Source: an uncultured Rhodospirillaceae bacterium (lineage in GTDB: Bacteria > Pseudomonadota > Alphaproteobacteria > MPNO01 > UBA2964). From it: a stretch of DNA of 64,000 nt. The position numbers and the translations under genes are program-made. Positions 21,402-48,191 of this stretch are shown piece by piece; the stretch's first letter is position 1, and each line of letters begins with the position of its first letter. The stretch lies in the NCBI GenBank assembly GCA_964499275.1, contig CAZCKO010000004.1, forward strand, positions 13,418 to 77,417, in the 5' to 3' direction. Below the pieces are notes generated by a model that did no database searches, had not been told where the DNA came from, and was given only the letters and a program-made list of their open reading frames with translations.

Positions 21402-22895
21402 ATGGATGGCTCGCAGGCTGCAGGTCTTATTCACAAGGTCACATTCGGTGACCTTAGGGAATATATTGAGGAAGTTGAAAAGCTTGGAGAGTTGAGACGT
21501 GTTGAAGGCGCTACCTGGGAAGAGGATATCGGCCTTGCTGCGGAACTGCTTCTTCACAGTGAAACAGCACCCTGTGCACTCTTTGATGAAATACCGGGTT
21601 ATCCCAAGGGCCATCGGGTCTTCACTAATTTTTTTGGCGGACGCCGCCAAAATATTACCCTTGGTTTTCCTCCAAACCTTTCAAAATTTGAATTAAGCGT
21701 AGCCTTCAATAAGGCTTATCAATCGATTGTGCAAAATCCAATCCCTTATGAGACCGTAGAAACTGGGCCGGTAATGGAAAACATAATGGAAGGGGACGAT
21801 GTAGACGTGTTATCTTTCCCGACTCCCCTTTGGCATGAAGGGGACGGTGGCAGATATATTGGCACTGGATCCTTTAATGTTACCCGTGACCCTGAAGAAG
21901 ATTGGGTGAATGTTGGGACCTATCGCGTAATGGTTCATGATAAAAAAACCGTAGGATTCTATATTTCGCCTGGCAAGCATGGTCGGATTCACCGTCAAAA
22001 ATACATGTCAAAAAACCAACCCATGCCAGTTTGTGTTGTTGTTGGAATAGATCCGCTGAGTTTTCTTATGTCCTCTTCAGAAATTCCCTACGGAGTATGT
22101 GAATTTGACATAATGGGGGCGTATCGAGGCCGCCCTATTGAATGTGTAATTGGCAAGCACACTGGCCTGCCCTTCCCTGCAAATGCTGAGATTGTTCTCG
22201 AGGGGTTTTGCTATCCTGACAATCTTCACTCCGAGGGGCCTTTTGGAGAATGGACGGGTTACTATGGAAACCCCGAACATAATGGTCCGACTTTAGATAT
22301 TAAGGCAATTTATCATCGCAATAATCCAATAATGCTCGGTTGTCCGCCTCAGCGACCACCAGAAGAACAGTCCCGCTATCGTGCTGTAGTGAGGTCTGCT
22401 TTGTTGAAGGAACAAATTGAAGCAGTCGGCGTTCCAGATGTGCAGGTGGCGTGGTGCCATGAATGTGGTGGTGGGCGTATGTTTACAGCGGTATCTATTA
22501 AGCAACGGTATCCTGGCCATGCAACGCAGGCAGGTCAGATTGCCTCACAGTGCAGATTGGGGGCGTACGCTGGGAAGTTTGTAGTTGTGGTTGATGAAGA
22601 CATCGATGCATCCAATTTAGAGGATGTGATGTGGGCGCTTTGCTTCAGAGCAGATCCGGCCACTGATATTGATATAATACAAAGGGGTTGGTCGACCGGG
22701 CTGGATCCTTCTATTCACCCTGATCGTAAGGCGATTGGCGACACCACTAATAGCCGCGCTGTAATAAATGCTTGCAAACCCTTTCATTGGAAAGATAGAT
22801 ATCCGAAGGTCAATATGCCTGACCCCGAGACCTACGAGCGTGCCCAGCAAAGGTGGGGCTGGCTTCTAAACAGTAATGCACCCCCAGAAAAATAG
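21402..22895 (+). CDS. UbiD-family (prFMN-dependent) decarboxylase, paralog 1
   Basis: 497 aa with the UbiD-fold N-terminus ...WEEDIGLAAELL... and central ..GPFGEWTGYY... Clear paralog of 30673..32151. Confidence 0.8.
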   Translation: MDGSQAAGLIHKVTFGDLREYIEEVEKLGELRRVEGATWEEDIGLAAELLLHSETAPCALFDEIPGYPKGHRVFTNFFGGRRQNITLGFPPNLSKFELSVAFNKAYQSIVQNPIPYETVETGPVMENIMEGDDVDVLSFPTPLWHEGDGGRYIGTGSFNVTRDPEEDWVNVGTYRVMVHDKKTVGFYISPGKHGRIHRQKYMSKNQPMPVCVVVGIDPLSFLMSSSEIPYGVCEFDIMGAYRGRPIECVIGKHTGLPFPANAEIVLEGFCYPDNLHSEGPFGEWTGYYGNPEHNGPTLDIKAIYHRNNPIMLGCPPQRPPEEQSRYRAVVRSALLKEQIEAVGVPDVQVAWCHECGGGRMFTAVSIKQRYPGHATQAGQIASQCRLGAYAGKFVVVVDEDIDASNLEDVMWALCFRADPATDIDIIQRGWSTGLDPSIHPDRKAIGDTTNSRAVINACKPFHWKDRYPKVNMPDPETYERAQQRWGWLLNSNAPPEK

Positions 22896-22916
22896 ATACG
22901 ATGGGGAGTTAGGCTT

Positions 22917-23936
22917 TTATTCATTACCAGCGTGCTTGGCTTCGTGCCTCGTCATAACGTAGGTTGAGCCAGCGATGATAGCTGCGCCAACCCATACCCA
23001 GAAATCGGTTGTTTGATTAAATACGAGGTATGCTAAGCCAGCCGTGATGGGTAAACGTAGGTACTCGATTGGCTCAATGATTGTTGCTTCGGTATGTACA
23101 AAAGCCCTTACAAGACAATAGGGTGCTGCGGTTCCCGAGACGGCTAGGAGCAGTAGTGCAGGGATATCGGTGATTTGGGGTGTTACCCACCTGAACCAGG
23201 TAAGTGGCAACCCGAAGTCCGGGTAAGAATTAGCCAAAAACCATCCCAAATACATCGAAATAGCAGCAAAAACTGTCAATGTGAATTGGTAATAGAAAGT
23301 TGTTGTGGTTGGATGGTCTGTTTTTCCAAGAGACCGCGTATATATTGCAACCCCTGCATATGATAGGGCCGAACCAAGCACAAGAAACGCTGCTGGGCTC
23401 ATCGGCACCGCACCTGGGCGAAGAATAACGACGACGCCCGCAAAGCCGACCAGTGTACACCCTAAGCGTATAATACCAGGTCGTTCCCGCAAAAAGATAA
23501 CCGCCAAGACGACCACCATAAGTGGCACGGTGAAATGCAATGCGACGGCCTTTGCTATTGGAAGAAAGGCAAGGCCGGCAAACCATAACCACATGCCCGC
23601 AAAATTTGCCAAGTTACGTTGTATATGAAAGCCAAGACGGTTGGTTTGCCAAAATTGATTTCCCTGCCAGGAAATTATGCAGAGTAGTATCATAAGGCCA
23701 ATCAGGTTCCTAAAAAACACCAACTCAATAGCGGGAATATGATCTAATAAACGAACTGCAATGGGAACAAAGGAATGCGCTATTGCGGCAGCCAGTCCCC
23801 ATCCAGCGCCAATCAGGACTTGATTACCGGTTCTTCCGTGAGAGTTAACAGGGCCCATTAATAAAAACCATTGAAGTCTATTATCAAAAAAATGACCATC
23901 GCTATAATTATGAGACCACAGAGGCGAATGAGACAC
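22917..23936 (-). CDS. EamA/DMT family transporter
   Basis: 339 aa polytopic protein with EamA repeat (..VILRPG..). 8-nt gap to the upstream membrane-protein gene. Confidence 0.7.
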   Translation of the reverse strand: MSHSPLWSHNYSDGHFFDNRLQWFLLMGPVNSHGRTGNQVLIGAGWGLAAAIAHSFVPIAVRLLDHIPAIELVFFRNLIGLMILLCIISWQGNQFWQTNRLGFHIQRNLANFAGMWLWFAGLAFLPIAKAVALHFTVPLMVVVLAVIFLRERPGIIRLGCTLVGFAGVVVILRPGAVPMSPAAFLVLGSALSYAGVAIYTRSLGKTDHPTTTTFYYQFTLTVFAAISMYLGWFLANSYPDFGLPLTWFRWVTPQITDIPALLLLAVSGTAAPYCLVRAFVHTEATIIEPIEYLRLPITAGLAYLVFNQTTDFWVWVGAAIIAGSTYVMTRHEAKHAGNE

Positions 23937-23943
23937 CTCATGA

Positions 23944-25358: not shown

Positions 25359-26552
25359 TTATAGTTCAGTTTTCTTTATCGAGAACAATCTGACTAATGG
25401 CAATAACAAGATACCCATAAAAGCCAACCCCGTCATTGCAATGAAAGAAAATCCGCCAAAGTTTTCGTAAAGCCAGCCTGACCCAAGCATCGCAAAGGCC
25501 ATAGTAGTTCCTACGGCGAAACTGGAATACAGGCTTTGCGCGGTTGCAGCAAATTCCGCTGGGACAGATTTTGCGATATAATAAAGAGCGGCTAAATGGG
25601 TGGCACCGAATGTAAAAGCGTGAAGCCATTGAATGCAAATCAGGTAAGTAATGTCTGTTGTTATACCAAGGATCGACCAGCGTAGAACGCCAGAAAGTCC
25701 TCCAATTGTCAAAAATATTATAGGCCCTATGCGGTCGATATATTTACCGGCTATTGCAAACAAGATAATCTCCGCGACAACCCCTTCAGCCCAAAGACCA
25801 CCAATCGTCACCTTATCAAGACCATTGGCACGCCAATGCAATGTAGAAAATCCATAATATACAGCGTGGCTAGCCTGTATCAGGCTTGCAGACATCATAA
25901 AGATGATAAGCCGCCCATTTCCTATTATGTTTAAAAAGGGTGCCAAAAACTTGTCAGTGCCCGGTGTTTTGGTTCTCGGAATTAAATGACAGATGGCAAC
26001 TGTCAACACCAAAAGTCCTATAACAAGCCACAAAATATAATCTGCCTTTTTACCCTGTAGAAAATACCCTCCTCCGATAGCGGCAACGATGAAGGTTAGC
26101 GATCCCCAGAGTCTCACTCTTCCGTAATCAATAGTCCCCGCACGAACCTTCAGCATGGTTACAGCATCTGCCATTGGCATCATGGCAAAGAGTAGAATCG
26201 AGGAACACACGCTAATTATAAAAAGGCTCCAAAATCCATCTGAAATAAAGAATAAAATATGTGTAATTAGGGCCCCCCAACCAAGTAGAATAATCATTAA
26301 GTCCGGGCGCCCATGCCGATCGGCACTTTGGGCGAGGAGAGGATTTAGAATAGCTCGGCTCCACGTTCCCACCGCAAGGATAAGACCAATTTCTATTGGG
26401 GTTATGCCTTTAGACTCTAGCCAAATGGGCCAAAATGGCATCACTATACCGATTACCGCAAAAATTGCGCCATAAATTAAGGAAATTCTAATTGCCATTA
26501 TCTTCAAGTGCCTATGAGATTGTCGCTGTGCAATGACGCCAACGTGGGACAT
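25359..26552 (-). CDS. MFS transporter, HcaT-like (3-phenylpropionate permease family)
   Basis: FWPIWLESKGITPIEIGLILAVGTWSRAILNPLLAQSADRHGRP closely parallels the HcaT/PPP-family signature. The true start may be the internal Met at about 26498. Confidence 0.6.
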   Translation of the reverse strand: MSHVGVIAQRQSHRHLKIMAIRISLIYGAIFAVIGIVMPFWPIWLESKGITPIEIGLILAVGTWSRAILNPLLAQSADRHGRPDLMIILLGWGALITHILFFISDGFWSLFIISVCSSILLFAMMPMADAVTMLKVRAGTIDYGRVRLWGSLTFIVAAIGGGYFLQGKKADYILWLVIGLLVLTVAICHLIPRTKTPGTDKFLAPFLNIIGNGRLIIFMMSASLIQASHAVYYGFSTLHWRANGLDKVTIGGLWAEGVVAEIILFAIAGKYIDRIGPIIFLTIGGLSGVLRWSILGITTDITYLICIQWLHAFTFGATHLAALYYIAKSVPAEFAATAQSLYSSFAVGTTMAFAMLGSGWLYENFGGFSFIAMTGLAFMGILLLPLVRLFSIKKTEL

Positions 26553-26591
26553 AATTGTCTTAATGTAAAACTAGATTCGGGGAGACCTAAA

Positions 26592-28328
26592 TTGGCAAAA
26601 CAAAAGATTAAAGCTGATACTACAGCAGAGGCCTATCTTACGCTTTTAGCAGACCGGGGCGTAGATTATTTGTTTGGTAATGCGGGGACAGACTTTGCTT
26701 CTGTAATTGAAGCATTGTCCAAAGCCCAGTTAGGTGAAGCGAAAGCGCCTATTCCTGTCACGGTTCCGCATGAAAATGTAGCCGTAGCAATGGCACACGG
26801 ATATTTTCTGGCGACTGGCCGGCCACAAGCTGTAATGCTTCACGTGACTGTAGGAACTGCAAACGGTGTTTGCGGGATTATGAATGCGGCGAGAGAACGG
26901 ATACCCATGTTGTTCACTGCTGGGCGTACACCCCTTACCGAAGAGGGTTTACCTGGAGCAAGAAGTATCTTCATCCATTGGGCACAGGAATTATTCGATC
27001 AAGCAGGTATGGTTCGGGAATTGGTCAAATGGGATTACGAGCTGCGGAATTTGGAACAACTTGAAACAGTAGTTGATCGAGCCCTAACGATAGCGATGTC
27101 CGAACCCAGGGGACCCGTATATTTAACGCTCCCCCGGGAAATTCTGGCCGAGGTGCCCGGTGATTTTACTTATGACAGTCCGTCAAGTCGCAACCCTACG
27201 GTAGCAGGAATACCTAATCCCAATGCAATTGATCATGCAGCGGATATGCTTAGTAAGGCAAAAAATCCCCTTATAATTTCTTCATCGTTTGGACAGACTC
27301 CAGAAGACGTCGCCGCGCTTGAGGAATTAGCTGATCAGTTTGCTATCCCGGTAGTTTGTTATCGCCCACGCTATGTAAATTTGCCTACGAGCCATGCTAT
27401 GCATGCAGGATTTGAGCCAGGACCTAAGCTGGGAAGCGCGGATGTGATTCTTACATTGGAAGCCGATACTCCCTGGATTCCAAGCCTTCATAAAATAGGC
27501 CCAGATACCAAGGTTATTCAGGCTGGTGTTGATCCGCTATTTGCAAATTATCCTATTCGAGGGTTTCGAAGTGATTTAACCCTATCGGGTGATGCCGCAG
27601 CAATTGTTAAAGCACTATCAGATGCTATGTCTGCAGATCAAGATCGTATCGCTGTCACTCGTAAGGTTGTCGCTGAAGAAAAATTGGAATTACTAGACAC
27701 CCAGAAAGCACTGCTAGAACGCCAGTCCGTGGGTGGGCCAATGGAATACCCATGGGTTGCGCATTGTATTGGACAGGCCATGAACGCGGACGATGCTTTA
27801 GTAAGTGAATCACAGCTGCCTGTCGGATTTTTAGGATCGAGACCTCCTGGGACTGTATTCGGCACTAGCCCGGCTGGTGGATTGGGTTGGGGTAATGGGG
27901 CGGCACTTGGTCTGCAGCTAGCAGATCGTTCTCGAAGGATATTTAATGTAGCGGGGGATGGGTCCTACATGTTTGGTAATCCCACACCGGCACACTTTGT
28001 GGGTGCGGCGCTAGAACTGCCAATTTGTACTATAATTCTCAATAATCGCATGTGGGGCTCGGTACGAAAATCAACACTTGGATTGCATCCGGAAGGTGCA
28101 GCTTCTCGTATGAATCGTTCACCTTTGACCGCGCTTGAACCAAATCCGGAATTTGAAAAAATTGTTGAGGCTAATGGTGGCTATGGCGAACGAGTGGATA
28201 ATGCTGAGGATTTGCCGGGGGCATTAGAACGGGCACTCAAGGCTGTAGATGTTGAAAAACGCCAAGCAGTCTTAAATGTTCAAACGTCTTATGATGATGC
28301 GCAAGCATTGGCAGATGCGAGACGTTAA
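26592..28328 (+). CDS. Thiamine pyrophosphate-dependent enzyme (acetolactate synthase / benzoylformate decarboxylase / sulfoacetaldehyde acetyltransferase superfamily); probable TTG start
   Basis: N-terminal Pyr domain (..YLFGNAGTDFASVIEAL..), central domain and a C-terminal TPP-binding GDGS motif (..NVAGDGSYMFGNP..NN..). A GGAG RBS lies just upstream of the in-frame TTG at 26592. The ORF track start at 26508 would overlap the divergent gene. Confidence 0.75.
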   Translation: MAKQKIKADTTAEAYLTLLADRGVDYLFGNAGTDFASVIEALSKAQLGEAKAPIPVTVPHENVAVAMAHGYFLATGRPQAVMLHVTVGTANGVCGIMNAARERIPMLFTAGRTPLTEEGLPGARSIFIHWAQELFDQAGMVRELVKWDYELRNLEQLETVVDRALTIAMSEPRGPVYLTLPREILAEVPGDFTYDSPSSRNPTVAGIPNPNAIDHAADMLSKAKNPLIISSSFGQTPEDVAALEELADQFAIPVVCYRPRYVNLPTSHAMHAGFEPGPKLGSADVILTLEADTPWIPSLHKIGPDTKVIQAGVDPLFANYPIRGFRSDLTLSGDAAAIVKALSDAMSADQDRIAVTRKVVAEEKLELLDTQKALLERQSVGGPMEYPWVAHCIGQAMNADDALVSESQLPVGFLGSRPPGTVFGTSPAGGLGWGNGAALGLQLADRSRRIFNVAGDGSYMFGNPTPAHFVGAALELPICTIILNNRMWGSVRKSTLGLHPEGAASRMNRSPLTALEPNPEFEKIVEANGGYGERVDNAEDLPGALERALKAVDVEKRQAVLNVQTSYDDAQALADARR

Positions 28329-28331
28329 ATT

Positions 28332-29132
28332 TCAAGCATAGCCCTGAACCATTATGGCACGACTTTCAAATTGAATTGAGCCATCCTTCTTGAAGGGGAG
28401 GGTCTCTTTGAGTTTTTCATAAACGGCATTGCGATGCTCGTCAGACATTTTTTTATAAAAACGGCCCACATTTTGTGAATTTGTGGTAATGGGTTTCCAA
28501 TAATCGTCAAGGTCACGGAAGCATGTTGTGAAGGAAAGGGTTTTTTGCTGGACGTTATTCAGTCCGGACTCCTCGAAATAATTTTTTAAAGTGTTGGCTT
28601 CCGCGATCGGAGTGCCAGTCGTTGTGCTAGTGCTTTGGTCAACAGGCGTTGTATCTTCAACTGCAGACCAAAAATGACGGGTCGTATTCATATTTGAGGC
28701 CATATCCCAATCGTACAAGGCAACAATGCCGCCCACTCGCGTCACGCGTTTCATTTCACTGATAGCTTTTGCTTTATCTGTTACGAATTTGATCATGAGT
28801 CCTGATACCACCGCGTCAAAACTTAAATCTTCAAACGGTAGGTTTTGAGCATTACCCAGCTCGAATTGAATGTCGGTATGATGAGGGTGGTTTTTTGCAG
28901 CCTGGATCGAAGTTTCTAGGGGGTCTATTCCGATCATTGTCGATGGAGAATATTTTTCAGAAATTATTTGGGTCAATGTGCCTACCCCGCAACCTACATC
29001 TAGCCAGCTCAACCCTGTTTTAGTGTCAATATTTTTGAGAAATAGTGCTGCTACCTTTCGGCTCCAACGGCCCATAAAATAGTCATATTGAGAATAGGTG
29101 TCTGAATAGGTCATTTGTGGATATCTTCCCAT
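28332..29132 (-). CDS. Class I SAM-dependent methyltransferase
   Basis: Motif I LDVGCGVGTLT. 266 aa. Confidence 0.75.
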   Translation of the reverse strand: MGRYPQMTYSDTYSQYDYFMGRWSRKVAALFLKNIDTKTGLSWLDVGCGVGTLTQIISEKYSPSTMIGIDPLETSIQAAKNHPHHTDIQFELGNAQNLPFEDLSFDAVVSGLMIKFVTDKAKAISEMKRVTRVGGIVALYDWDMASNMNTTRHFWSAVEDTTPVDQSTSTTTGTPIAEANTLKNYFEESGLNNVQQKTLSFTTCFRDLDDYWKPITTNSQNVGRFYKKMSDEHRNAVYEKLKETLPFKKDGSIQFESRAIMVQGYA

Positions 29133-30664
29133 GCTTTCTTAGCCGCTTTGCGGTCAATTTTCCCTCGGTTGTTTTTGGGTATTTCTTTTACTAGTTCAAT
29201 ATATTTTGGGCGTTTTTTTTCAGGAAGGTTCTCGTTGCAGAAAAGCACCAACGCCGTCGCGGTTAGTTTTGAATTCGGTGAAATAACTACCCAACTGGCA
29301 AGATTTTCTCCATAGACAGGGTCATGAATCCCAAAGGTCACAACTTCAAGTACACCTGGTTGTTGCGAAATTAAGGAGTCTATTTCTAATGGTGAAATAT
29401 TTACTCCGCCGCGTATAATAACATCTTTTGCTCGCCCCGTAATTCGTATAAACCCCTCATCATCAAAAAACCCAAGATCACCGGTTTTAAGAGGTTTTCC
29501 TCTTAACGACTCCGTTTCTCCACCGGCATAGAGGTAAGCGTTAGCATGCTGAGCGCTGACAGACTCTATTTCGCCGACAATACCCGGTTCCAGCAAGTTG
29601 TTGTTGTCATCTCTTATCGAAATTTTCTGATACATTCCGGCGGTTCCAACACTCCCTATTTTCCGATTTCCGGGGGTGTTTGCAGCAATGATACCCCCTT
29701 CACTCATTCCGTAGAGTTGAACCAATTCCACACCATAGATTTTTTCAAACCGTCGATGGGCATCGGCCATCAATGGGGCGGTGCTACATGAAATAAAGCG
29801 AACATTTTTAAAGATTTCTTTGCCGTTTTTAATAGGCTGTTCCAGTAACATATTTACAACTGTTGGAACGGCAACAATTATGGTGGGGCTATATGTTTCA
29901 ATCCAGTTTACGAAACGCGAATATGAAAAATTTTTTGCAAATAGTAGCGTTGCGCCTGCCAAAATAGTCGGGTTTAACGAAATCATGTGGGCTGATGCCC
30001 AGGTTATGGAACGAAACTCTAAAATTCGATCGTTGTTATTAAGTGACCAACGCTCTATTTGGTGTTGGGCAATAGCTTGATAGTTACCAAAGCTATGGAT
30101 AACTCCTTTTGGTTGGGCCGATGTCCCCGATGTGAAACAGATAACACAGTGGTCATTTGGGGTATTTTTAAGATGATATAAGTTTTTGCTATGGAGCTTT
30201 GATAATCTGGTAAAAAGGTCGGTATCGCGTCTTCTATCTTCGAAGAAAAATTTTTGTCTATTTGTTTTGGGTTCAATAATCAGGCTCCCAAACCCTCGCT
30301 CAATAAAAATAAGCTTTGGTGATATACGGTCAACCATTTCGATTAAGTGATTATAATTTACGTCGGTATTGATGGTGCAGTAGGTGGATCCAAAAGATTG
30401 TATTGCGTAATACAGGATAAGATGCTCTGTGGTGCTCTCTCCAACTACTAGGATCCTGTCATTTTTCTGTATTCCAAGGTTCCGTAGAAATTGAGCGATA
30501 CGGACACTCCAGTCCCAGAGTTCTTGCCAGGTAATAGAGTCCCCATTTTCTATTGAAACCAGGGCATCGGATGCTGGACTATTAACGACATTGCGCTCTA
30601 ATTGTTCCGAAATGGATAAGTAATTATCAGGTAAAAGATCTGTTGGCGCGGTCAAAACAACCAT
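29111..30664 (-). CDS. AMP-dependent synthetase/ligase (acyl/aryl-CoA ligase family)
   Basis: AMP-binding motif (..FTSGTSAQPKGV..). Conserved YGMSEGG and GDLGFFDDEGFIRITGRAKD segments. 517 aa. Confidence 0.85.
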   Translation of the reverse strand: MVVLTAPTDLLPDNYLSISEQLERNVVNSPASDALVSIENGDSITWQELWDWSVRIAQFLRNLGIQKNDRILVVGESTTEHLILYYAIQSFGSTYCTINTDVNYNHLIEMVDRISPKLIFIERGFGSLIIEPKTNRQKFFFEDRRRDTDLFTRLSKLHSKNLYHLKNTPNDHCVICFTSGTSAQPKGVIHSFGNYQAIAQHQIERWSLNNNDRILEFRSITWASAHMISLNPTILAGATLLFAKNFSYSRFVNWIETYSPTIIVAVPTVVNMLLEQPIKNGKEIFKNVRFISCSTAPLMADAHRRFEKIYGVELVQLYGMSEGGIIAANTPGNRKIGSVGTAGMYQKISIRDDNNNLLEPGIVGEIESVSAQHANAYLYAGGETESLRGKPLKTGDLGFFDDEGFIRITGRAKDVIIRGGVNISPLEIDSLISQQPGVLEVVTFGIHDPVYGENLASWVVISPNSKLTATALVLFCNENLPEKKRPKYIELVKEIPKNNRGKIDRKAAKKAWEDIHK

Positions 30665-32151: not shown

Positions 32152-32369
32152 TGATTTCCTCCGCATTTCTGTTGAAAGGACTTTTACACGGTCAGGGCAA
32201 CGGAGCAAGCGGGCGTCCCTTGGTTTTGTATTCATTTGGATTTGACAAATTTAGGTCCATTTATCACCCTAATAATATGAAGTGCCTGACAGCCTAGGTC
32301 TAAATTATTATTTGAATTAACCTATTCTAATGTAGTTAAAATTTAACTCCGCGATTGGGAGGACACGGA

Positions 32370-33335: not shown

Positions 33336-33432
33336 ATTAGATAAATGATGGTCTCGTTGACTTGCCGTATAGTTGCGCCATCGAAGGGGCTGAGGCAAAG
33401 TGCGACTTATAATTGTGATTGGGTGAATTACT

Positions 33433-39241: not shown

Positions 39242-39253
39242 TGAAATTTTTAG

Positions 39254-40096: not shown

Positions 40097-40123
40097 TGCG
40101 TCCTCCCCATTTAAGGGTTAGTT

Positions 40124-40897
40124 TTATTGAGACTGCAGAAACGTCCTAAGAACCTCAGTAAACTCTTCGGGACGATCGATTGTTGATAAGTGTCCAGCGC
40201 CATCAATAATTTTTATTTCTGAGCCAGAAATTCCGTCACGTATAAATTCTGATTCCGTAATTGGACTAGTTTCATCGGCCTGCCCGGCAATAATCAATGT
40301 CGGTTCCGTAACCAGTTTGAGGTCGCTGCTAGCATCATAAGTTAGCAACGCACGAATGGTACTGACATAAGATTTTGGCGGGCATTTAGATATCTCCTGT
40401 GCGAGTTCATCTAGCTTTTCGATAGGGGTAGTGGGCATTAACTGATCACCAGCATACTGGCTACCAAATTCAAGCATCGAAAGGTAGGCGACCGCTTCTT
40501 GAGTCGCATAAATACGATCTTCTGACCCTTCGCGTAGGCGGGCAAAGCTGTTTGCAAGGGTCATGGAAAGGGCTACGTCTGGATACAGTCTGTTAAAACA
40601 CAGCCCAATTGGACCTCCCATAGAGAGACCCACCAGATGGCAGCTGTCTACGTTGAGTTGATCCAGCACAGCTTTTAAGTCAGCGGCACATTCTTCTATC
40701 GAGAAACTCCCATTAAAAGAGGAGGCGCCATGACCGCGGCAATCGGGTACTATACAGCGGAAATTGGCTTTGAGGTCAGCAACCTGGTCAAGAAACAAGT
40801 AACTATTCGTACCCATCGAGTGGATAAATAGTATAGCAGGGCCATCACCCTCATCCACGAAGAATATTTTTTCACCGTTGGCTTCAATCGTTGGCAT
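40124..40897 (-). CDS. Alpha/beta-fold hydrolase
   Basis: Nucleophile elbow GLSMGG. Catalytic Asp/His context in 257 aa. Confidence 0.75.
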   Translation of the reverse strand: MPTIEANGEKIFFVDEGDGPAILFIHSMGTNSYLFLDQVADLKANFRCIVPDCRGHGASSFNGSFSIEECAADLKAVLDQLNVDSCHLVGLSMGGPIGLCFNRLYPDVALSMTLANSFARLREGSEDRIYATQEAVAYLSMLEFGSQYAGDQLMPTTPIEKLDELAQEISKCPPKSYVSTIRALLTYDASSDLKLVTEPTLIIAGQADETSPITESEFIRDGISGSEIKIIDGAGHLSTIDRPEEFTEVLRTFLQSQ

Positions 40898-40983
40898 AAG
40901 CTGACCTTCAAGGTGTAATGTCTAAATCAAATAATAGCTAAAACCTAACACTGGTGGGTTATCCGCGAAACCCTCACAGAATT

Positions 40984-41841
40984 TTATACAGCGTTAATCA
41001 TAGGCGACCCTTCAAGGGTGCAACGTCTCAAAAGCCGTTTTTCGTCAGCCGGAAAGTCAGTTCGAGCATGGGTTGAACAACGGTTGTCCCACATTGCCAA
41101 GTCACCTTTCTTCCAAACATGTTCATATACAACTCTTGGGTCTTCCGCGATTTCAATAAGTTTTCGCAGAATTTGATCGCTGTCTTCGTTCTCCAAATCT
41201 TCAATAATCGCAGAAATGAGTCGGCTGACGTAAAGTGCCGTTTTGCCAGTTTCAGGGTGTTTGACAAAAATAGGTTGCCACTGATGTTGAATGCCATCGA
41301 GACCATTTTTAAGGTCAACTTTTTCCAGCATGGTAAAGTTATATGCTTGTAAAACTTTTCGGCCTTGCAGTTTTTTTCTCAAGTCCTCCGGGATGTTTTC
41401 ATATGCTAGATATTGATTTGCAAATTTAGTATTTCCCCCGGTCGAGGGAAGTTCTATAGCATGTAATAGTGTCGCTTTGTGAGGTTCCGGCCTATAACTC
41501 ATATCGTGATGAAACCACATTTCCCCATCTTGTAATGAACCTATGTAGTTGCCATTCTCATCACGCTGATTGGTTACCAACATAATACTCCCATCATAAC
41601 CATTGGTAACTTCGTTCTGGTTCTCAAGCGGTGTTGCTCTAATACCAACATTACCAAACTGATTGGCGAATGCTACTTGTTCATCCTTTGTGAGTGATTG
41701 GTCCCGAAATATTAATACGATATGATCAAGCCAGGCTTGGTAAATTTCCTCGATGTTGTTTTTGCCGAGCGGTTTACGGAGATCAATTTCTGTTATTTCA
41801 GCACCTATTGGGCTGTTAAATGGCGTGATTTTATATGTCAC
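40984..41841 (-). CDS. TauD/TfdA-family Fe(II)/2OG dioxygenase
   Basis: ..MWFHHDMSY..(HxD), ..WDNRCSTHART..RRLLRRCTL... Paralog of 41870..42748. Confidence 0.8.
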   Translation of the reverse strand: MTYKITPFNSPIGAEITEIDLRKPLGKNNIEEIYQAWLDHIVLIFRDQSLTKDEQVAFANQFGNVGIRATPLENQNEVTNGYDGSIMLVTNQRDENGNYIGSLQDGEMWFHHDMSYRPEPHKATLLHAIELPSTGGNTKFANQYLAYENIPEDLRKKLQGRKVLQAYNFTMLEKVDLKNGLDGIQHQWQPIFVKHPETGKTALYVSRLISAIIEDLENEDSDQILRKLIEIAEDPRVVYEHVWKKGDLAMWDNRCSTHARTDFPADEKRLLRRCTLEGSPMINAV

Positions 41842-41869
41842 AATTAACTCCCTTTAACCGGTATAAATA

Positions 41870-42748
41870 TTAAGAAGCTGCGATCATTTCCTGACCGAGC
41901 AAGGTGCAACGACGTAAAAGCCTACGTTCATTTGCTGGAAAGTCGGTGCGTGCATGGCAAGAGCAGTAATTATCCCACATCGCCAATTCTCCTTCCGTCC
42001 ATGCATGTTCATAAAAATTACTGCCAGCTTCGCTTATCGTGTAAAGCTCTTCGAGGATGGCGTCGCTTTCATCGCGGGGTATTCCATCGATCCTGGCGGT
42101 CATAAGCCTGTTGACATACAGTGCTGTGCGCCCCGTTTCTGGATGACGAACGAAGATTGGCTGCGATCTGTTATGAATTCCAGTCATATCGCCGTCAATA
42201 TCAACCGTTTGTGTCATATGGTAATCATATACCTGCAACGCCGTTCGGTCTTTGAGTTCATTTTTTAATTTTTCTGGTATCAGGTCGTAGGCACGGTACA
42301 TATTTGAAAAACGTGTGTTGCCGCCGGTTGAAGGGATATCAATGGCATAAAGCATTGTGCCTTTATGCGGCTTTGGCATGTAACACATGTCATGATGAAA
42401 ATACATTTCTCCGTCGGGTAGGGACCCCACGTAGCGTCCTTTTTCATCTTTTACATTGGTCACCAACATTATTGCATCGTTATAATTTGCGCCTTCGGGT
42501 CGTTGTTCTGGGCGGCGCGACCGTGTTCCGGTATCGCCAAACTTTTTGGCAAAGTTAAGCTGCTGGTTCTGCGTTAGTTCTTGTTCCGGGAAGATTAAAA
42601 CGATGTAATCATGCCAAGCTTGAGTAATTTCTTTAACTGCCTGAGCATTAAGTGGTTTGCCAATATCGACCCCAGTTACTTTTGCCCCGAGTGCATCAGA
42701 GAGCGGGGTAACGGTTAGTTTTGATTTAAGAACACTAGCCATAGTCAC
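41870..42748 (-). CDS. TauD/TfdA-family Fe(II)/2OG dioxygenase
   Basis: ..MYFHHDMCY.., ..WDNYCSCHART..RRLLRRCTL... 292 aa. Confidence 0.8.
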   Translation of the reverse strand: MTMASVLKSKLTVTPLSDALGAKVTGVDIGKPLNAQAVKEITQAWHDYIVLIFPEQELTQNQQLNFAKKFGDTGTRSRRPEQRPEGANYNDAIMLVTNVKDEKGRYVGSLPDGEMYFHHDMCYMPKPHKGTMLYAIDIPSTGGNTRFSNMYRAYDLIPEKLKNELKDRTALQVYDYHMTQTVDIDGDMTGIHNRSQPIFVRHPETGRTALYVNRLMTARIDGIPRDESDAILEELYTISEAGSNFYEHAWTEGELAMWDNYCSCHARTDFPANERRLLRRCTLLGQEMIAAS

Positions 42749-42862: not shown

Positions 42863-43582
42863 ATGAGAGAGAAAAATTCTGAAATAAACCGTTCTCTGTT
42901 AGATATTTTTGATCAACAAGCGTCAAAGGCCGAGCGCGGAGAGTTGATTGGAGAGATTTATGACTTCCTCGCTTTGCTAAACGGCATCAAGCCTGTCTTT
43001 CTGCATGGACGTGGCCATACTCCTGTGGAATGGGTCGAACCAATCAAAAAGTTGGCTTGTGGTTTAAATTTTTTTGTCATTGAAGGTTTTTATTGGGATG
43101 CCACGCCTTATGACGAGTTCCCCAATTGGTATCAAGAGCATTGTCGCAATCAATTGTTGCCATTTCGAGCTTGGTATATTTGTAAAGAGGCGGAGTTAGC
43201 AGCTGCCATAAAAAATATTAACAATACAGGTGGGCGCCTAACGATGGCTGAAGAGGCCTCTTTGTTAGGCTATCCGGAGTGTTGTGTGCGTGCTCATTAT
43301 GAGCGCGCCTGTAGATACCATAGGGGCACTTTGTCTATCCTCAAACGTTTGGGAAAGGGTGATCAAAACCAAATGCAGGCCCTCGCGATTGGGAATGCGC
43401 ACCTTATTCCTGTAACGGCGCAAGAAATCGAAGACTTTGATTTTGCCTTTAAAATTCATGCACCAAGAGTAGGGAGTTGGAATATGTGTGACTCCTGTTC
43501 GAGAGGAGCCAAGCCCTTCTCGGATAATTTGGTAAAAAAATATTTAAGCGTAATTGAAAAAACCGGTTTGGCGATTTACTAA
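42863..43582 (+). CDS. Hypothetical Cys-rich protein
   Basis: 239 aa with no recognised family. Cys clusters YPECCVRAHYERACRYH and CDSCSRG. Confidence 0.4.
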   Translation: MREKNSEINRSLLDIFDQQASKAERGELIGEIYDFLALLNGIKPVFLHGRGHTPVEWVEPIKKLACGLNFFVIEGFYWDATPYDEFPNWYQEHCRNQLLPFRAWYICKEAELAAAIKNINNTGGRLTMAEEASLLGYPECCVRAHYERACRYHRGTLSILKRLGKGDQNQMQALAIGNAHLIPVTAQEIEDFDFAFKIHAPRVGSWNMCDSCSRGAKPFSDNLVKKYLSVIEKTGLAIY

Positions 43583-44403
43583 GCTGTCGCGAGAGCCACA
43601 TTAGCTGCAGTAATTACACGCAAGCCCTTGTCAGGATCTACAAACCCTGAAAGGGCCTCGGCAACTTGGGCTTTTAGATTTTCCAGACCCACTTTATCTA
43701 ATTGTTCTAGAGCGTGCCTCGAAGAAGGCCCACCAGCCGCAAGAGATTCTATAAAATGTTCTGAAGAGGCGAAATAACTATCCATTTGTTTTCGCACGAC
43801 AGCGATATCGCGAAAGCCTGCCTCCTGAAAAAGGTCGCCCAGAATAACCGGGTCACCAAATGAAAATGGATGTGTAACCCCCTTCGCGTCGACGCCGTTT
43901 TCTTCTAATGCTGCTGCAATTGCCGCGTGAGCGGGGTTCCTGTCGGGGGGGCAATAGGCTGTTAATGCTAGCCGTCCCCCCACTGCTAAAACACGTTTCA
44001 TTTCCGCTAGAGCTTTACCTTTTTCAGAAAGAAATTGCAGAAGTTGATTGCCGACGACGATGTCAAAGGAGTTATCTTGATATGGCATATTTATCACGTC
44101 ACCCCGGTGCCATTCTATTTCTTTTTTTTTATCAAGTGTCTTGGCATAGGCGATCATTCCGGCGTTAAAATCTATTGCAGATACAGAACCCTCGTTCCCA
44201 ATAATCTGCTTTGCGTATCGTGCTGCTGCGCCACTTCCGCAGCCTACATCAAGTAATCGGTCCCCCTTCTTTGTTCCCGCAAGATCTATCATCGACTCTG
44301 ACCAGGGTCCAAAGATGGTTGGCACTAAAAACTTTTCAAATGCTTCCGCAGCAGACGTGTCCACTTCATTGCTATTAGAATTGGTAACCATATGAAATCT
44401 CAA
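43579..44403 (-). CDS. Class I SAM-dependent methyltransferase
   Basis: Motif I LLDVGCGSGAAARYA. 274 aa. Confidence 0.75.
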   Translation of the reverse strand: MRFHMVTNSNSNEVDTSAAEAFEKFLVPTIFGPWSESMIDLAGTKKGDRLLDVGCGSGAAARYAKQIIGNEGSVSAIDFNAGMIAYAKTLDKKKEIEWHRGDVINMPYQDNSFDIVVGNQLLQFLSEKGKALAEMKRVLAVGGRLALTAYCPPDRNPAHAAIAAALEENGVDAKGVTHPFSFGDPVILGDLFQEAGFRDIAVVRKQMDSYFASSEHFIESLAAGGPSSRHALEQLDKVGLENLKAQVAEALSGFVDPDKGLRVITAANVALATA

Positions 44404-44482: not shown

Positions 44483-45409
44483 CTAGGCCGCTTTCTTTGT
44501 GGTTTTTTTATCGAGTAACCCAGCCCGCTTCAAAACTCCATCTAGGCGTTTTTCAAGCTCCTTAGATGCTGGCATCATGGGAAGACGGTGTTCATTTTTC
44601 GGCATGATACCCAATTTTTTCATCATGTATTTCATGGGTGTTGGGTTCGTGTCAAAAAATACTGCCTGGTTAATCTCGAAAAGGTCATAGTGAATTTTTT
44701 GTGCGGCCTTCATATTTCCTTTCCATACCTGTTCGCACATGCGGGCGAGTTCCCCCGGCATTAAGTTTCCGACCGCATTCATAAGGCCGCAGGCACCAAC
44801 CGTCATCATTGGGTAAGATAGATCCTCAAGGCCCACAAAGATACGAAAATCCTTTCCAAAGTGATCAATACATTTCGACACGAAACCAAGGTCATCAACG
44901 GCGTGTTTCATACCGACAAAGTTGGGACAGTTTTTACTGATTTGATCAAGTGTACTTAGCGTAACGGAAACAGCAGCGCGCCCTGGGATATGGTAGATCA
45001 TCCAAGGGAGTTTTGTTCTTTTACCGAGGTCACTGTAGTAAGCAATGAGCCCACTTTGAGGAGGGCGGATGTAATAGGGGGTCACGATCAATAATGCGTC
45101 AGCGCCTGCCTTGTCAGCGTGCTCCGTCAGTGCCGCGGTTTCAGCTAGGCTCTGCGAGCCTGTTGCCGCGACAATAGGAACTTTTCCACCGGCGGCTTCT
45201 ATGGCAACATCGACTGTGCGGTTGCGCTCTTCAGTTGTTAGTGTGGATGGTTCAGAGGTGGTGCCATTTACGAGAATTCCGTGGGAGCCATTTTTGACTT
45301 GGAACTCTACTAAACCGGCATAAGCATCGTAATCTATCGATCCATTTCTAAAAGGTGTGATAAGTGGGGGTATAGACCCTTTCAAAAATGTTTTTGGTAA
45401 ACGCATCAT
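44483..45409 (-). CDS. Dihydrodipicolinate synthase/N-acetylneuraminate lyase (DapA) family lyase
   Basis: ITPF...G..DY.A...LVEFQ...G..GILVNGTTSE motif with the Schiff-base Lys region typical of the DapA family. Start taken at the Met that avoids overlap with the upstream cupin gene. Confidence 0.7.
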   Translation of the reverse strand: MMRLPKTFLKGSIPPLITPFRNGSIDYDAYAGLVEFQVKNGSHGILVNGTTSEPSTLTTEERNRTVDVAIEAAGGKVPIVAATGSQSLAETAALTEHADKAGADALLIVTPYYIRPPQSGLIAYYSDLGKRTKLPWMIYHIPGRAAVSVTLSTLDQISKNCPNFVGMKHAVDDLGFVSKCIDHFGKDFRIFVGLEDLSYPMMTVGACGLMNAVGNLMPGELARMCEQVWKGNMKAAQKIHYDLFEINQAVFFDTNPTPMKYMMKKLGIMPKNEHRLPMMPASKELEKRLDGVLKRAGLLDKKTTKKAA

Positions 45410-45413
45410 TGGT

Positions 45414-46532
45414 TCAGCTCGCAATTTTTTCACGATTAGTATCAAAACCCATTTCCGCCCCAAGGACACTCCAAGGTTTCTTTAGGTCTTCTTGCCACAA
45501 TAAAGATTCCATTACGATGTTCAGTGGCTGGTCCTGGATTGTTAATTCGTAGATTGGATCCGTACCGGTACTGGCATGATTGTGTACACCCCAGCCCGGC
45601 GCGGTGAGCAGTAAATCACCGGACTGCCACTCATAAACTTTACCTTCGACGGTTGAACGTCCTTCTCCTTGAAAAATATAGTTCATAGCTGCAGATACGT
45701 GGCGGTGTGGTTTATCTACAATGCCGGGGGGACGAATGGTAATTGTCGCAAAAAAGTTTGGTGTGGTGCCGTTGGTCCGGCCAGTCATCGGATTCCATAA
45801 AAGGTAAAGACGGCGACCCACGTAGTCAGAACCAAGTGCCGAAAGTTTATCGAGCTCGGCTTTGACTTTTTTCCATGGCCAATGAAGCGCACGCGACTCA
45901 ACGGATTCGGGCGCTATTAAAATTTCATAAGGCATAAGCCATGCACCATCGTCTGTAAGCTCGAATGTACCGTAGGGACTTTTTCGTCGGGGATCGTCTT
46001 CAGCAATCTCTCCTTCTTTTTTTTCTTCCACTACTTGAACATCAGCCGGGGGGTCTTCTTCAACAATGTGGACGTTCATCTTTTCAAGGAGCGGAGCGTT
46101 AGTATACGTCAAGCGGACCTGGACTTCATCTGTATCATTGACATGGATATAGGTTTGCATTGATGGAAAGTTGAACACGTCAAATTGCTCAAAATCTATT
46201 CGTTTCCCACCAACGACGGAGTGTCCTCCTCCCCGAATACAGAAATTAACCTGTGTTGAGTTGTGGCGGATGGGGCGTGTCTGCTCCCCCGGGTTAAGGA
46301 CTTCAAGAATTGGGCGAATACCCGGTGCCAAGCCCAAGCCAACGCCGAGTTTGTGTGAATCCGGGTGAACAATCCAGCTTTGTCGACGGCCATTATTGGG
46401 TGTTGCCATATTAGACAATCTTTCAATTTCGTCATCGAAGTCGGATTTTTTTATGATGGCGGGCTCCCATAATTCGGGAGAGGGTTCTGTCGTACCTGAT
46501 TTGTCTATGAAAATTCCTTTTTGCTCGGCCAT
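45414..46532 (-). CDS. Cupin-domain protein (bicupin, gentisate 1,2-dioxygenase-like?)
   Basis: 372 aa with two cupin-like beta-barrel regions, including a His-rich segment ..GWGVHNHASTG... The family assignment is tentative. Confidence 0.45.
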   Translation of the reverse strand: MAEQKGIFIDKSGTTEPSPELWEPAIIKKSDFDDEIERLSNMATPNNGRRQSWIVHPDSHKLGVGLGLAPGIRPILEVLNPGEQTRPIRHNSTQVNFCIRGGGHSVVGGKRIDFEQFDVFNFPSMQTYIHVNDTDEVQVRLTYTNAPLLEKMNVHIVEEDPPADVQVVEEKKEGEIAEDDPRRKSPYGTFELTDDGAWLMPYEILIAPESVESRALHWPWKKVKAELDKLSALGSDYVGRRLYLLWNPMTGRTNGTTPNFFATITIRPPGIVDKPHRHVSAAMNYIFQGEGRSTVEGKVYEWQSGDLLLTAPGWGVHNHASTGTDPIYELTIQDQPLNIVMESLLWQEDLKKPWSVLGAEMGFDTNREKIAS

Positions 46533-46552
46533 GACTCTTCTCCATTAAATTC

Positions 46553-46585
46553 AATTCATATCTCAATAGGTTTGAGATATGAATT
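46553..46585. promoter_or_regulatory. Perfect 14-bp inverted repeat AATTCATATCTCAA-N5-TTGAGATATGAATT, 20 bp upstream of the cupin gene start; candidate operator or 5'-UTR stem-loop
   Basis: Read directly from the sequence. It sits in the 255-bp intergenic region between UbiD paralog 3 and the cupin-DapA-like genes. Confidence 0.4.
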
Positions 46586-46787
46586 TAAGTTCGTTGACCT
46601 TCTGATTAGGCCAGAGATCTAAAATATTAATTACTTGGATACTTTATTTTCTCTCTGCATTAAAGGTCCTTCTATTGTCTTTTATTGGTCGCGGTCGAAA
46701 TTCTTTCCAAGTAAGACGAGGGTTCTAGCGGTCCAGGGTTGGTTCGTACCCAATCGATTGCCTTAATCACATCCCTATAAAAATTGT

Positions 46788-48191
46788 TCAAGGCAAAAAG
46801 TCCTCAATATTTACGGAGCTATAGTTGGTTGGCATTGCACGGTCAAACCGTGTTTTATCTTCGATTCGTGTGCTCCACGGTTTAGTAGCGTCGATTGCAA
46901 CCTTAGTGCCGATCCTGTACATCGGGCTCATACCCGGGACAATGTCTGATACGTTGTCGAGAGACCAAATTCGTGTATTATCAATTTTGAAAACATCACT
47001 ATCAGCATGCACTCGGGTCGTTAAAGACCAGAATACCTGATTGAGGTTAGCGGCATCCATATCCTCATCAATTGCTATGGCGAGTTTTGGATGAAGATAG
47101 GGGCTTGATAATGCGGCCATTAGGGCGGTTTTAGCCTGACCGGCGCTGCGTGGCCTAATCTTTATGACAACAGCCATCAGACCAGATACACCAAGGCATC
47201 TTACATCCAAGAGGTCCATCCCTCCTTCAACCTTTGACAAGTGTTCAAAAAGGGCGGCTTCAATGCATGTACCCGTGATAGATTGAGGATCCGTCATGGG
47301 TGCTCCGGAATGCATTCCATAGAATATTGGATCTTTACGATGTGTAATTGCTTTGAGGACGAAAATTTCTGTTGACCCTTCTTCAGCATATCCCCCAGTA
47401 ACTTCACCAAAGGGCCCTTCCTCCGTCATCGCATCAGGTAGGATTTCTCCTTCTATAATTATTTCGGCATCTGCTGGAACCTCAAGATCACTGGTTTCGC
47501 ATTTTACTATTCGCACTGGGTCCTCTAGCAAGCCTCCAGCTAATGATAATTCATCGATTCCGTAGCGTGTTGTAAAGCCACCTGCGTACAAAATGGCCGG
47601 ATGCACACCGACTACCATCGCGACAGGCATTGGTTGATTAAGGGTTTGATATTTTTGATAAGTTCTCAAAGCGTGACGCGGACAAATCAAAAATCCACTT
47701 CGATCTGGCCCCAATATTTGCTGACGATGATATGACATATTTCGTATGCCAGTTTCTGGGTCTTTGATCACGGCCATGCCGGCAGCGATGTAAGGACCTG
47801 GGTCTTTCTCGGATGTCCACATTGCTGGAAGTTTAGTTAAATCTGCATCATTTCCCGTGAGAATTACTTCTTTCACCGGTGCATCTTTAGCTTCAACTAT
47901 AATAGGGTCTAAGGGTTTTTTAATGCGTTGAACGACCGTTGGAATTACCTCCTCTTCTGATACCCCAAAACCAATAGCCCATTTACGACGGTCGGTGATA
48001 ACTTGGCTCGCCAGTCGCCAGCCAGGAAATCCTTCAAGGTTGGTAAATAGGGTTGATTTTCCAAACCGATCATAGGTTTTCCAACCAATAGCCGAAACAT
48101 CCTCAGACGGATTGGTTGGCTTTTCTATGCGGATGAGTTCTCCTTGCTGTTCAAGGTTTTGAACATGGCCACGGAATGATTGGTCGCGCAT
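46788..48191 (-). CDS. UbiD-family decarboxylase, paralog 3 (divergent)
   Basis: 467 aa. UbiD-like segments (..EEGPFGEVTGGY.., ..MAVVIKI..). More distant from paralogs 1 and 2. Confidence 0.7.
   Translation of the reverse strand: MRDQSFRGHVQNLEQQGELIRIEKPTNPSEDVSAIGWKTYDRFGKSTLFTNLEGFPGWRLASQVITDRRKWAIGFGVSEEEVIPTVVQRIKKPLDPIIVEAKDAPVKEVILTGNDADLTKLPAMWTSEKDPGPYIAAGMAVIKDPETGIRNMSYHRQQILGPDRSGFLICPRHALRTYQKYQTLNQPMPVAMVVGVHPAILYAGGFTTRYGIDELSLAGGLLEDPVRIVKCETSDLEVPADAEIIIEGEILPDAMTEEGPFGEVTGGYAEEGSTEIFVLKAITHRKDPIFYGMHSGAPMTDPQSITGTCIEAALFEHLSKVEGGMDLLDVRCLGVSGLMAVVIKIRPRSAGQAKTALMAALSSPYLHPKLAIAIDEDMDAANLNQVFWSLTTRVHADSDVFKIDNTRIWSLDNVSDIVPGMSPMYRIGTKVAIDATKPWSTRIEDKTRFDRAMPTNYSSVNIEDFLP

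Follow-up and report, generated by a model that had tools for sequence, protein, structure and literature searches.

Three genes of the UbiD family, whose (de)carboxylases need prenylated flavin mononucleotide (prFMN) made by UbiX, lie in a 64,000-nucleotide stretch of contig CAZCKO010000004.1 from an uncultured Rhodospirillaceae bacterium (the window, meaning the whole stretch). We call them U1, U2 and U3 in order of position (Table 1). An initial annotation had described three UbiD homologs here, two of them close paralogs and one divergent; all three are indeed present, full-length and matched by Pfam, and U1 is 53% identical to U2 and 29% identical to U3. UbiD_N, UbiD and UbiD_C are matched by each of them, the central UbiD domain with E = 7e-65, 6e-63 and 2e-64 in U1, U2 and U3, respectively, in a Pfam scan of all window open reading frames (ORFs) of at least 90 amino acids taken as genes, plus a few extra ORFs. 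The UbiD_N match of U1 (23.4 bits) is slightly below the 24.3-bit gathering cut-off, and the TIGR00148 subfamily cut-off of 245 bits is exceeded by U1 (264) and U3 (292), U2 (230) being just under it. The longest ORF of U2 extends to 32235; the start at 32151, giving 492 amino acids, agrees with the gene calls of its relatives.

All 29 near-invariant columns in an alignment of 18 diverse family members are retained in U1-U3. U1, U2 and U3 each have the Asn of the N-x-G-x-Y-R motif and the Glu of the YGxxE region, the two positions mapped of the three (Asn, Glu and a His) that bind the metal and the cofactor phosphate in Fdc1. In the comparison of predicted active sites suggested by the initial annotation, an Arg/Glu/Glu network is kept throughout: R175/E278/E283 in U1, R174/E277/E282 in U2 and R156/E258/E263 in U3, aligning with R180/E285/D290 of E. 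coli UbiD and with R159/E269 of PhdA. The two PhdA residues have been discussed as catalytic (PMC10850782), and the network has also been treated for the UbiD family (PMC5818171).

Purifying selection is evident from dN/dS values of 0.042 (U1) and 0.041 (U2) against 97-98%-identical orthologs in one related locus (L009; L followed by a number labels related loci throughout), and farther orthologs keep 86-94% amino acid identity despite saturated synonymous sites. Orthologs 83-98% identical are present in metagenome-assembled genomes (MAGs) from many samples. The U1 and U3 families each count thousands of homologs; the best 120 matches listed are at least 63% identical for U1 (one of them partial, with 75% coverage) and at least 57% identical for U3 (an 812-aa outlier; the rest at least 65%). 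Given the retained invariant residues, the low dN/dS of U1 and U2 (~0.04) and the size and conservation of the families, U1-U3 are predicted to be working, intact prFMN enzymes.

To which branch of the family they belong was assessed with NCBIfam models, solved structures and a neighbour-joining tree (100 bootstraps) that took as reference sequences PhdA, HmfF and VdcC (taken from printed alignments), E. coli UbiD, Azoarcus PpcA and PpcB, and Aromatoleum phthaloyl-CoA (CoA, coenzyme A) decarboxylase. Scores for U1, U2 and U3, respectively, are 146, 146 and 187 bits with the ubiquinone decarboxylase model NF008175 (cut-off 788), 195, 191 and 188 bits with the futalosine/menaquinone enzyme model TIGR03701 (cut-off 496), and 260, 247 and 269 bits with the VdcC model NF041204 (cut-off 650). 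The best NCBIfam model for U1 (312 bits) and U2 (277 bits) is that of PpcB, the beta subunit of phenylphosphate carboxylase (models TIGR02724 and TIGR02723), with a cut-off of 469. Among solved structures PhdA (7PDA), the phenazine-1-carboxylate decarboxylase (PMC10850782), scores 376 bits with U1 and 329 bits with U2, far above other families, and the best for U3 is HmfF (6H6V) at 236 bits and 34% identity.

In the tree, U1, U2 and a homolog from Aromatoleum EbN1 group with 100% bootstrap and are joined by a fourth UbiD paralog of the lineage (99%), then by PhdA (99%) and then by PpcB (100%). U3 clusters with its homologs in another clade, also at 100%, for which the tree supports no sister group. 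E. coli UbiD, 27-29% identical to U1-U3, stands in a clade apart. Since the cut-offs are missed and the tree separates them from E. coli UbiD, U1-U3 are not quinone decarboxylases; by sequence, all three are non-canonical, and none is the ubiquinone UbiD. The possibility named in the initial annotation, that all would fall into the ubiquinone clade, is thus not what is found. The fourth paralog, seen at loci L061-L065 in the same MAGs as close relatives of the window genes, is PhdA-like (42-43% identical to U1, 323 bits to 7PDA); its neighbours are TctA, EamA, a short-chain dehydrogenase/reductase (SDR) and an EutA-like protein, with no ubiX.

The closeness to characterized enzymes has limits. 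Among enzymes with a solved structure, PhdA of Mycolicibacterium fortuitum comes closest to U1 (40.7% identity) and U2 (37.6%), with which it shares the 99% clade. At about 40% identity, however, its substrate is not transferable; several paralogous branches lie between PhdA and U1/U2, which fall outside the PhdA type, and the host is an actinobacterium, not a marine alphaproteobacterium. The UbiX homolog PhdB is presumably encoded in the same operon as PhdA, whereas the window encodes no UbiX. It also lacks an HpaC-like flavin reductase; the maturase PhdC, with which PhdA works, belongs to that family (PMC13040415). PpcB of Thauera and Azoarcus (38% identical to U1, 35% to U2) is sister to the PhdA/U1/U2 clade; its cut-off is missed, the ppcA, ppcD and ppcG partners and an adjoining ubiX are lacking, and the context is aerobic. 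In Azoarcus KH32C, the pAZKH order is ppcB-D-A-G, then UbiD, then UbiX.

HmfF, a 2,5-furandicarboxylate decarboxylase (Pelotomaculum thermopropionicum 6H6V; Cupriavidus basilensis), is the nearest solved relative of U3, and many U3 homologs bear the Joint Genome Institute (JGI) name '2,5-furandicarboxylate decarboxylase 1', but no supported grouping joins the two, hmfG (UbiX) and hmfABCDE-type neighbours are missing, and the partners of U3 are instead a bicupin, an HpaI-like aldolase, 2-oxoglutarate (2OG) oxygenases and a PcaD-like hydrolase. E. coli UbiD shares the fold and the catalytic network, and its gene, too, is not linked to ubiX; its substrate class, the polyprenyl-hydroxybenzoates, and the NF008175 scores set it apart. 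From VdcCD/BsdCD the window genes differ in the NF041204 scores and in lacking a small D subunit beside them. Phthaloyl-/isophthaloyl-CoA decarboxylases resemble the U2 surroundings in the adjoining CoA ligase; the phthaloyl-CoA enzyme itself yields 48-105 bits at 24-27% identity, and no UbiX is present.

Among cultured organisms, the best entry to the U1/U2 clade is WP_011255029, encoded on plasmid 2 of Aromatoleum aromaticum EbN1; it is the nearest homolog from a cultured, annotated organism (61.7% identical to U1, 58% to U2). Like U1, it adjoins transporters, one of them of the drug/metabolite transporter (DMT) family; unlike U1, it lies between two UbiX-phthaloyl-CoA decarboxylase pairs in the o-phthalate island of a conjugative plasmid, with ubiX at most 5 kb away. 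That island (L089, plasmid record 62097-87527) also holds an ATP-binding cassette (ABC) transporter, a porin and the DMT transporter beside WP_011255029, with idi nearby. A UbiD-DMT pair conserved across classes was considered and rejected, the EbN1 DMT neighbour having no BLASTP match (E <= 1e-5) to window proteins.

As the initial annotation stated, the window holds neither UbiX nor a small partner subunit. None of the scanned window ORFs matches the UbiX/Flavoprotein family, a six-frame tblastn search of the window with E. coli UbiX has a best E of 0.76, and two Aromatoleum UbiX probes find no match there. The negative result is meaningful because the E. coli probe detects alphaproteobacterial UbiX, retrieving plasmid-encoded copies at 44-66% identity (E 1e-38 to 1e-72). 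Nor does ubiX lie immediately outside: near-identical contigs show none in flanks of ~10 kb downstream and ~2.7 kb upstream. Window and flanks together span roughly 77 kb. No HpaC-like flavin reductase (PhdC family) is matched by Pfam in the window, and a PhdC/LpdD-type helper is likewise absent from it and, as is a VdcD-type small subunit, from these flanks. The gaps beside U1-U3 measure 96, 21, 8, 203, 255 and 228 bp, and because the longest ORF in them is at most 43 aa, no VdcD-type small subunit is encoded there. PhdA and HmfF are described as hexamers, with no small subunit mentioned (PMC10850782, PMC7976604); since these are the nearest solved relatives, no partner is expected.

The lack of a nearby ubiX, which the initial annotation presented as remarkable, is ordinary for these UbiD clades. 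No ubiX occurs within 8-10 kb at any of 74 loci of U1/U2 relatives or six loci of U3 relatives. Up to 10 kb on each side was covered at the 74 loci. Most of the loci are alphaproteobacterial, with a minority from Chloroflexota, Binatia, Thermodesulfobacteriota or Halobacteriales, and many of them hold two UbiD paralogs side by side. In E. coli, too, ubiD (4.025 Mb) and ubiX (2.428 Mb) are 1.6 Mb apart. The absence from all 80 loci, the side-by-side paralogs, the fourth paralog without ubiX and the unlinked E. coli pair make the arrangement an ordinary one; linkage to ubiX is seen on catabolic plasmids, namely EbN1 plasmid 2 and pAZKH of Azoarcus KH32C. Many client decarboxylases sharing one unlinked ubiX, which we infer to lie elsewhere in the genome, is the simplest reading.

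The term 'island' used in the initial annotation does not hold in a compositional sense. Because GC content is flat (0.42-0.475 over 64 kb), the window showed no tRNA, integrase or transposase and the gene order recurs in about a dozen MAGs, the region is a stable, non-mobile chromosomal segment, syntenic in related MAGs, and a mobile or compositional island was rejected. The order shared with the related MAGs runs from an array of EamA genes through glutathione S-transferase (GST), TPR, EamA, U1 and EamA to a membrane protein, a major facilitator superfamily (MFS) permease, a thiamine diphosphate (ThDP) enzyme, a methyltransferase, a CoA ligase and U2. Marine metagenome contigs encode proteins that match those of the window exactly or almost so. 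The closest genome records belong to uncultured MAGs under various labels (Pseudomonadota, Rhodospirillaceae, Rhodospirillales or Alphaproteobacteria bacterium); identity to the U1 ortholog is 98% for JAYZFG010000010 and 92% for the complete chromosome OX638326.1. The flanks carry housekeeping genes: dxs, an ftsJ-like gene, a TRAM methyltransferase, aroC, an SDR, a pdxH-like gene, Usp and fumarase downstream, and an ABC transporter and an epimerase upstream.

Scans for promoters and terminators in the window did no better than on shuffled sequence, and no gene within ~13.7-50.4 kb of the window matches a transcription-factor or DNA-binding Pfam family. Elsewhere in the window are a compact queuosine set (queG, queF, tgt, queA; 4078-7881), whose link to the decarboxylases is improbable, and, adjoining the U3 region on its downstream side, an operon for a DmsABC-like molybdopterin oxidoreductase (50389-55005) with catalytic, 4Fe-4S and DmsC-like anchor subunits.

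Table 1. UbiD-family genes and their neighbours in the window.
Feature	Position	Strand	Description or context	Support
Six tandem EamA/DMT genes	13760..19025	+	upstream of U1 region	Pfam EamA each; array kept in close MAGs
EamA/DMT transporter	20409..21305	-	divergent from U1	Pfam EamA; pairing kept in close MAGs
U1	21402..22895	+	497 aa, UbiD-family decarboxylase, PhdA/PpcB-like clade	Pfam UbiD_N/UbiD/UbiD_C
EamA/DMT transporter	22917..23936	-	convergent with U1	Pfam EamA; synteny
Polytopic membrane protein, 439 aa	23944..25263	-	strongly hydrophobic	no Pfam/NCBIfam match; kept in close MAGs
MFS_1_like (HcaT-type) permease	25359..26552	-		Pfam PF12832, 212 bits
ThDP-dependent enzyme (PRK08327 type)	26508..28328	+	convergent with U2 operon	syntenic in close MAGs
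Class-I S-adenosylmethionine (SAM) methyltransferase MT1	28332..29114	-		Pfam Methyltransf_11/25/31
AMP-binding acyl/aryl-CoA ligase	29111..30664	-	coupled to U2	Pfam AMP-binding, AMP-binding_C; no NCBIfam equivalog cut-off reached
U2	30673..32151	-	492 aa, UbiD-family decarboxylase, U1 paralog, heads three-gene operon	Pfam
2OG-Fe(II) oxygenase and FAD_binding_2 oxidoreductase	32355..34977	+	divergent from U2	Pfam, NCBIfam
PhyH dioxygenase, PcaD-like alpha/beta hydrolase, two TauD/TfdA-family dioxygenases	39254..42748	-	distal U3 module	Pfam
Class-I SAM methyltransferase MT2	43579..44403	-		Pfam; 56% identical at same place in L087
DHDPS-family class-I aldolase, HpaI-like	44483..45469	-	true start probably near 45410	Pfam DHDPS
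Bicupin, putative ring-cleaving dioxygenase	45414..46532	-	downstream of U3	two Cupin_2 stretches
U3	46788..48191	-	467 aa, UbiD-family, own clade nearest HmfF, heads conserved catabolic module	Pfam
Class-V aminotransferase and CnbZ-type 2-aminomuconate-class deaminase	48420..50378	+	divergent from U3	Pfam Aminotran_5

The neighbours listed in the initial annotation are largely as described: an MFS_1_like permease, a CoA ligase, two methyltransferases, a bicupin and five Fe(II)/2OG-type oxygenases are present. The methyltransferases match only generic families, which does not establish the qualifier 'O-methyltransferase-like'.

Two EamA/DMT genes bracket U1 in all close relatives. EamA neighbours occur at 23 of the 74 loci, mostly of close relatives, and are frequent just within this lineage. 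Orthologs of U1 at 85-87% identity are followed by genes for a LigXa-like Rieske oxygenase and a LigB extradiol dioxygenase. The duplications behind the six-gene array appear old, since its members are just 34-55% identical in pairwise comparison. Ten EamA/DMT genes occur in the 64 kb altogether (the array, the two beside U1, and 983-1918 and 7990-8889), and in other genomes such genes recur beside U3 homologs and beside the fourth UbiD paralog. On the near-identical metagenome contig scaffold_487 (L001), which encodes an identical U1 protein, the second EamA of the array (14650-15534 in the window, 3519-4130 in L001) has a 267-bp deletion that leaves a 108-aa call, which suggests that one array member may be decaying at the population level. 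Several related MAGs carry an extra, unannotated 428-aa gene beside the 439-aa membrane protein.

The U2 stop lies 8 nt ahead of the CoA-ligase ATG, and the CoA-ligase stop and the MT1 start overlap in ATGA at 29111-29114; because of this spacing and overlap, the sequence indicates that U2, the CoA ligase and MT1 form one operon. The convergent ThDP enzyme reaches 653 bits with NF006203 (cut-off 456) and 157 bits with the benzoylformate-decarboxylase-like model. In other alphaproteobacteria, orthologs of U2 (63-71% identical) are arranged differently, in the order PhyH, a very divergent UbiD, Amidohydro_2, the U2 ortholog itself and two MFS genes, with FAD_binding_3 hydroxylases nearby. The very divergent UbiD is a fifth type, ~27% identical to U1-U3, paired with U2-type orthologs in other alphaproteobacteria (L041-L044, L047, L049, L053, L055, L060, L066, L079, L081); PhyH precedes the pair, and Amidohydro_2 often stands between its members.

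U3 heads a module that is kept at 73-79% U3 identity in L087 and L088 and partly in L083. In these relatives the order is U3, MarR, bicupin, DHDPS aldolase, methyltransferase, a small protein without known family, TauD, alpha/beta hydrolase and PhyH, and the window matches it from 48191 down to 39254 minus MarR, of which no remnant was found in the 255-bp gap between U3 and the bicupin (46533-46787). Beside the U3 homologs of L083, L087 and L088, the bicupin is 66-81% and the aldolase 80-83% identical to those of the window, and L087 and L088 repeat the PhyH/hydrolase/TauD part, its gene order unchanged, at 54-69% identity. The aldolase is nearest TIGR02313, 2,4-dihydroxyhept-2-ene-1,7-dioate aldolase (310 bits, cut-off 397), and for the hydrolase the nearest model is that of 3-oxoadipate enol-lactonase (144 bits, cut-off 256). 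Between the methyltransferase and the TauD genes lies a 239-aa Cys-rich protein (42863-43582; GYPECCVRAHY, CDSCSRG) with no family match and a 37%-identical counterpart at the same place in L087. Divergently from U3, the class-V aminotransferase (48420-49619) is paired with a 248-aa protein (49632-50378) that lacks a Pfam match and reaches 363 bits with CnbZ, 2-amino-5-chloromuconate deaminase (equivalog cut-off 220).

At the corresponding place divergent from U3 homologs, L083-L085, L087 and L088 carry a nitrile-hydratase-like set with a split beta subunit (alpha, beta_N, beta_C), near which L083 and L084 also have an amidase; no nitrile-hydratase genes are present in the window. The split-beta set resembles the three-subunit toyocamycin nitrile hydratase. 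It hints at a route from nitrile through amide and acid to decarboxylation in those genomes.

Because the loci of relatives carry LigXa-like, LigB, Amidohydro_2 and FAD_binding_3 genes and the bicupin/HpaI-like module, the recurring partners of the U1-U3 relatives are aromatic-catabolic, which supports a role in the catabolism of aromatic acids; the position of the closest cultured homolog of U1 in the EbN1 o-phthalate island is further support. The context of aromatic or heteroaromatic acids proposed for these non-canonical UbiDs in the initial annotation is strengthened by these partners. We consider it probable that U1, U2 and U3 are three independent, functional prFMN-dependent UbiD (de)carboxylases, each likely decarboxylating a different aromatic or heteroaromatic acid with prFMN supplied in trans. 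Family membership, intact motifs, purifying selection, synteny and the lack of ubiX both locally and at related loci bear on this directly; the direction of the reaction, the aromatic nature of the substrates and the order of pathway steps we infer.

Under this proposal each enzyme would remove CO2 non-oxidatively from its own carboxylic acid, the DMT, MFS and Tct transporters nearby would import the substrates, and the adjoining oxygenases, hydrolase and aldolase would process the decarboxylation products. U3 would be the entry enzyme, probably followed by ring cleavage by the bicupin, hydrolysis by the PcaD-like enzyme and aldol cleavage by the HpaI-like enzyme, with the TauD/TfdA- and PhyH-type 2OG oxygenases and the methyltransferase trimming substituents. 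As U2 is translationally coupled to the CoA ligase and the methyltransferase, its product or a co-substrate acid would probably be activated as a CoA thioester. U1 may work with its two flanking DMT transporters. A single ubiX elsewhere would supply prFMN to all paralogs, of which the lineage has at least four, and no small subunit would be needed.

Several observations weigh against this proposal. None of the three proteins reaches an NCBIfam equivalog cut-off. Relatives of U1 at 60-68% identity stand among housekeeping genes, the U2-CoA ligase-methyltransferase pairing is limited to this lineage, and functional coupling of U2 with the ligase and methyltransferase is weakly supported. The bicupin matches gentisate and 5-aminosalicylate 1,2-dioxygenases weakly, at ~77 bits and well under the cut-off, and non-aromatic compounds are among the substrates of TauD and PhyH enzymes. 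As to the cofactor, UbiX and UbiD are lacking in 1,119 of 3,928 (~28%) ubiquinone-capable Pseudomonadota species, 676 of them Alphaproteobacteria (bioRxiv 10.64898/2026.03.05.709815), several Rhodospirillales being among the species without them (PMC5714133). Alternative routes of ubiquinone decarboxylation exist (PMC10626278). Given the ~28% figure, a housekeeping ubiX cannot be assumed from ubiquinone synthesis, and that argument was rejected. It is nonetheless very unlikely, in our estimate, that the lineage keeps at least four intact UbiD paralogs with no genomic ubiX, obtaining prFMN from a non-UbiX prenyltransferase or by scavenging; it would then be one of the many alphaproteobacteria whose ubiquinone synthesis does without UbiD and UbiX.

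The view that U1-U3 are relics or prFMN-independent proteins, which would account for the lack of a nearby ubiX, draws on its absence from the window and flanks and on the many alphaproteobacteria without UbiX and UbiD (bioRxiv 10.64898/2026.03.05.709815). Intact ORFs, all family-invariant residues, dN/dS of ~0.04 for U1 and U2 and orthologs in many samples speak against decay, and this view is hardly credible. Equally hard to sustain is that the three genes encode quinone decarboxylases, either the ubiquinone UbiD or the menaquinone enzyme of the futalosine pathway. Many cluster members do bear the JGI label '4-hydroxy-3-polyprenylbenzoate decarboxylase', and the window contains ispA and the start of dxs; yet the NF008175 and TIGR03701 scores and the distance from E. 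coli UbiD contradict such a role, and three paralogs beside transporters and oxygenases misfit a single biosynthetic step.

Two further alternatives concern the direction and the purpose of the reaction. U1 and U2 might be carboxylases of the phenylphosphate, benzene or naphthalene type, with the CoA ligase trapping the acid and so pulling an unfavourable carboxylation forward. PpcB is their top model and the 100% sister of the PhdA/U1/U2 clade, a CoA ligase directly follows U2, and in benzene-carboxylase clusters benzoate-CoA ligase follows AbcA. The PpcB scores, however, stay below the cut-off, PpcA, PpcD and PpcG are absent, unlike in Azoarcus KH32C, the surrounding genes encode O2-dependent oxygenases, and the CoA-ligase link is not conserved beyond the lineage. 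Moreover, 8 kb separates U1 from U2, the two are on opposite strands, and each is found without the other elsewhere, grounds on which a heteromeric U1/U2 enzyme like PpcA/PpcB was also rejected. We regard the carboxylase alternative as quite improbable. Somewhat easier to entertain, and still unlikely, is a biosynthetic U2 cluster (CoA ligase, methyltransferase, 2OG oxygenase, FAD enzyme and ThDP enzyme) in which the UbiD would tailor a metabolite in the manner of TtnD, SmdK, TubF or BagN/FevL. Biosynthesis commonly combines a ligase, a methyltransferase, an IPNS-type 2OG oxygenase and a ThDP enzyme, many exporter-type DMT transporters are nearby, and UbiD enzymes with biosynthetic roles are known (PMC12391406). 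Against this, the window has no core gene for a polyketide synthase, non-ribosomal peptide synthetase, terpene or ribosomally synthesized peptide, the BagN/FevL model gives 158-162 bits (cut-off 1000), and the relatives of U1-U3 adjoin catabolic LigB, LigXa-like, Amidohydro_2, FAD_binding_3, HpaI-like and PcaD-like genes.

U1-U3 thus join a known enzyme family as new members, and the catabolic neighbourhood around them is conserved. Alphaproteobacterial metagenomes from sea and soil are rich in the U1/U2 and U3 clades, which have thousands of homologs, and we know of no characterized member of either. The question of the cofactor would be weighty only if the genome were truly without ubiX, which we judge unlikely. 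New substrates of UbiD enzymes are still emerging, such as xanthine-8-carboxylate in 2025 (PMC12391406), and the U3-bicupin-aldolase module is a concrete pathway candidate. U1-U3 could yield new reversible (de)carboxylases for biocatalysis, and their substrates could show how oligotrophic marine bacteria consume carboxylated aromatics in dissolved organic matter.

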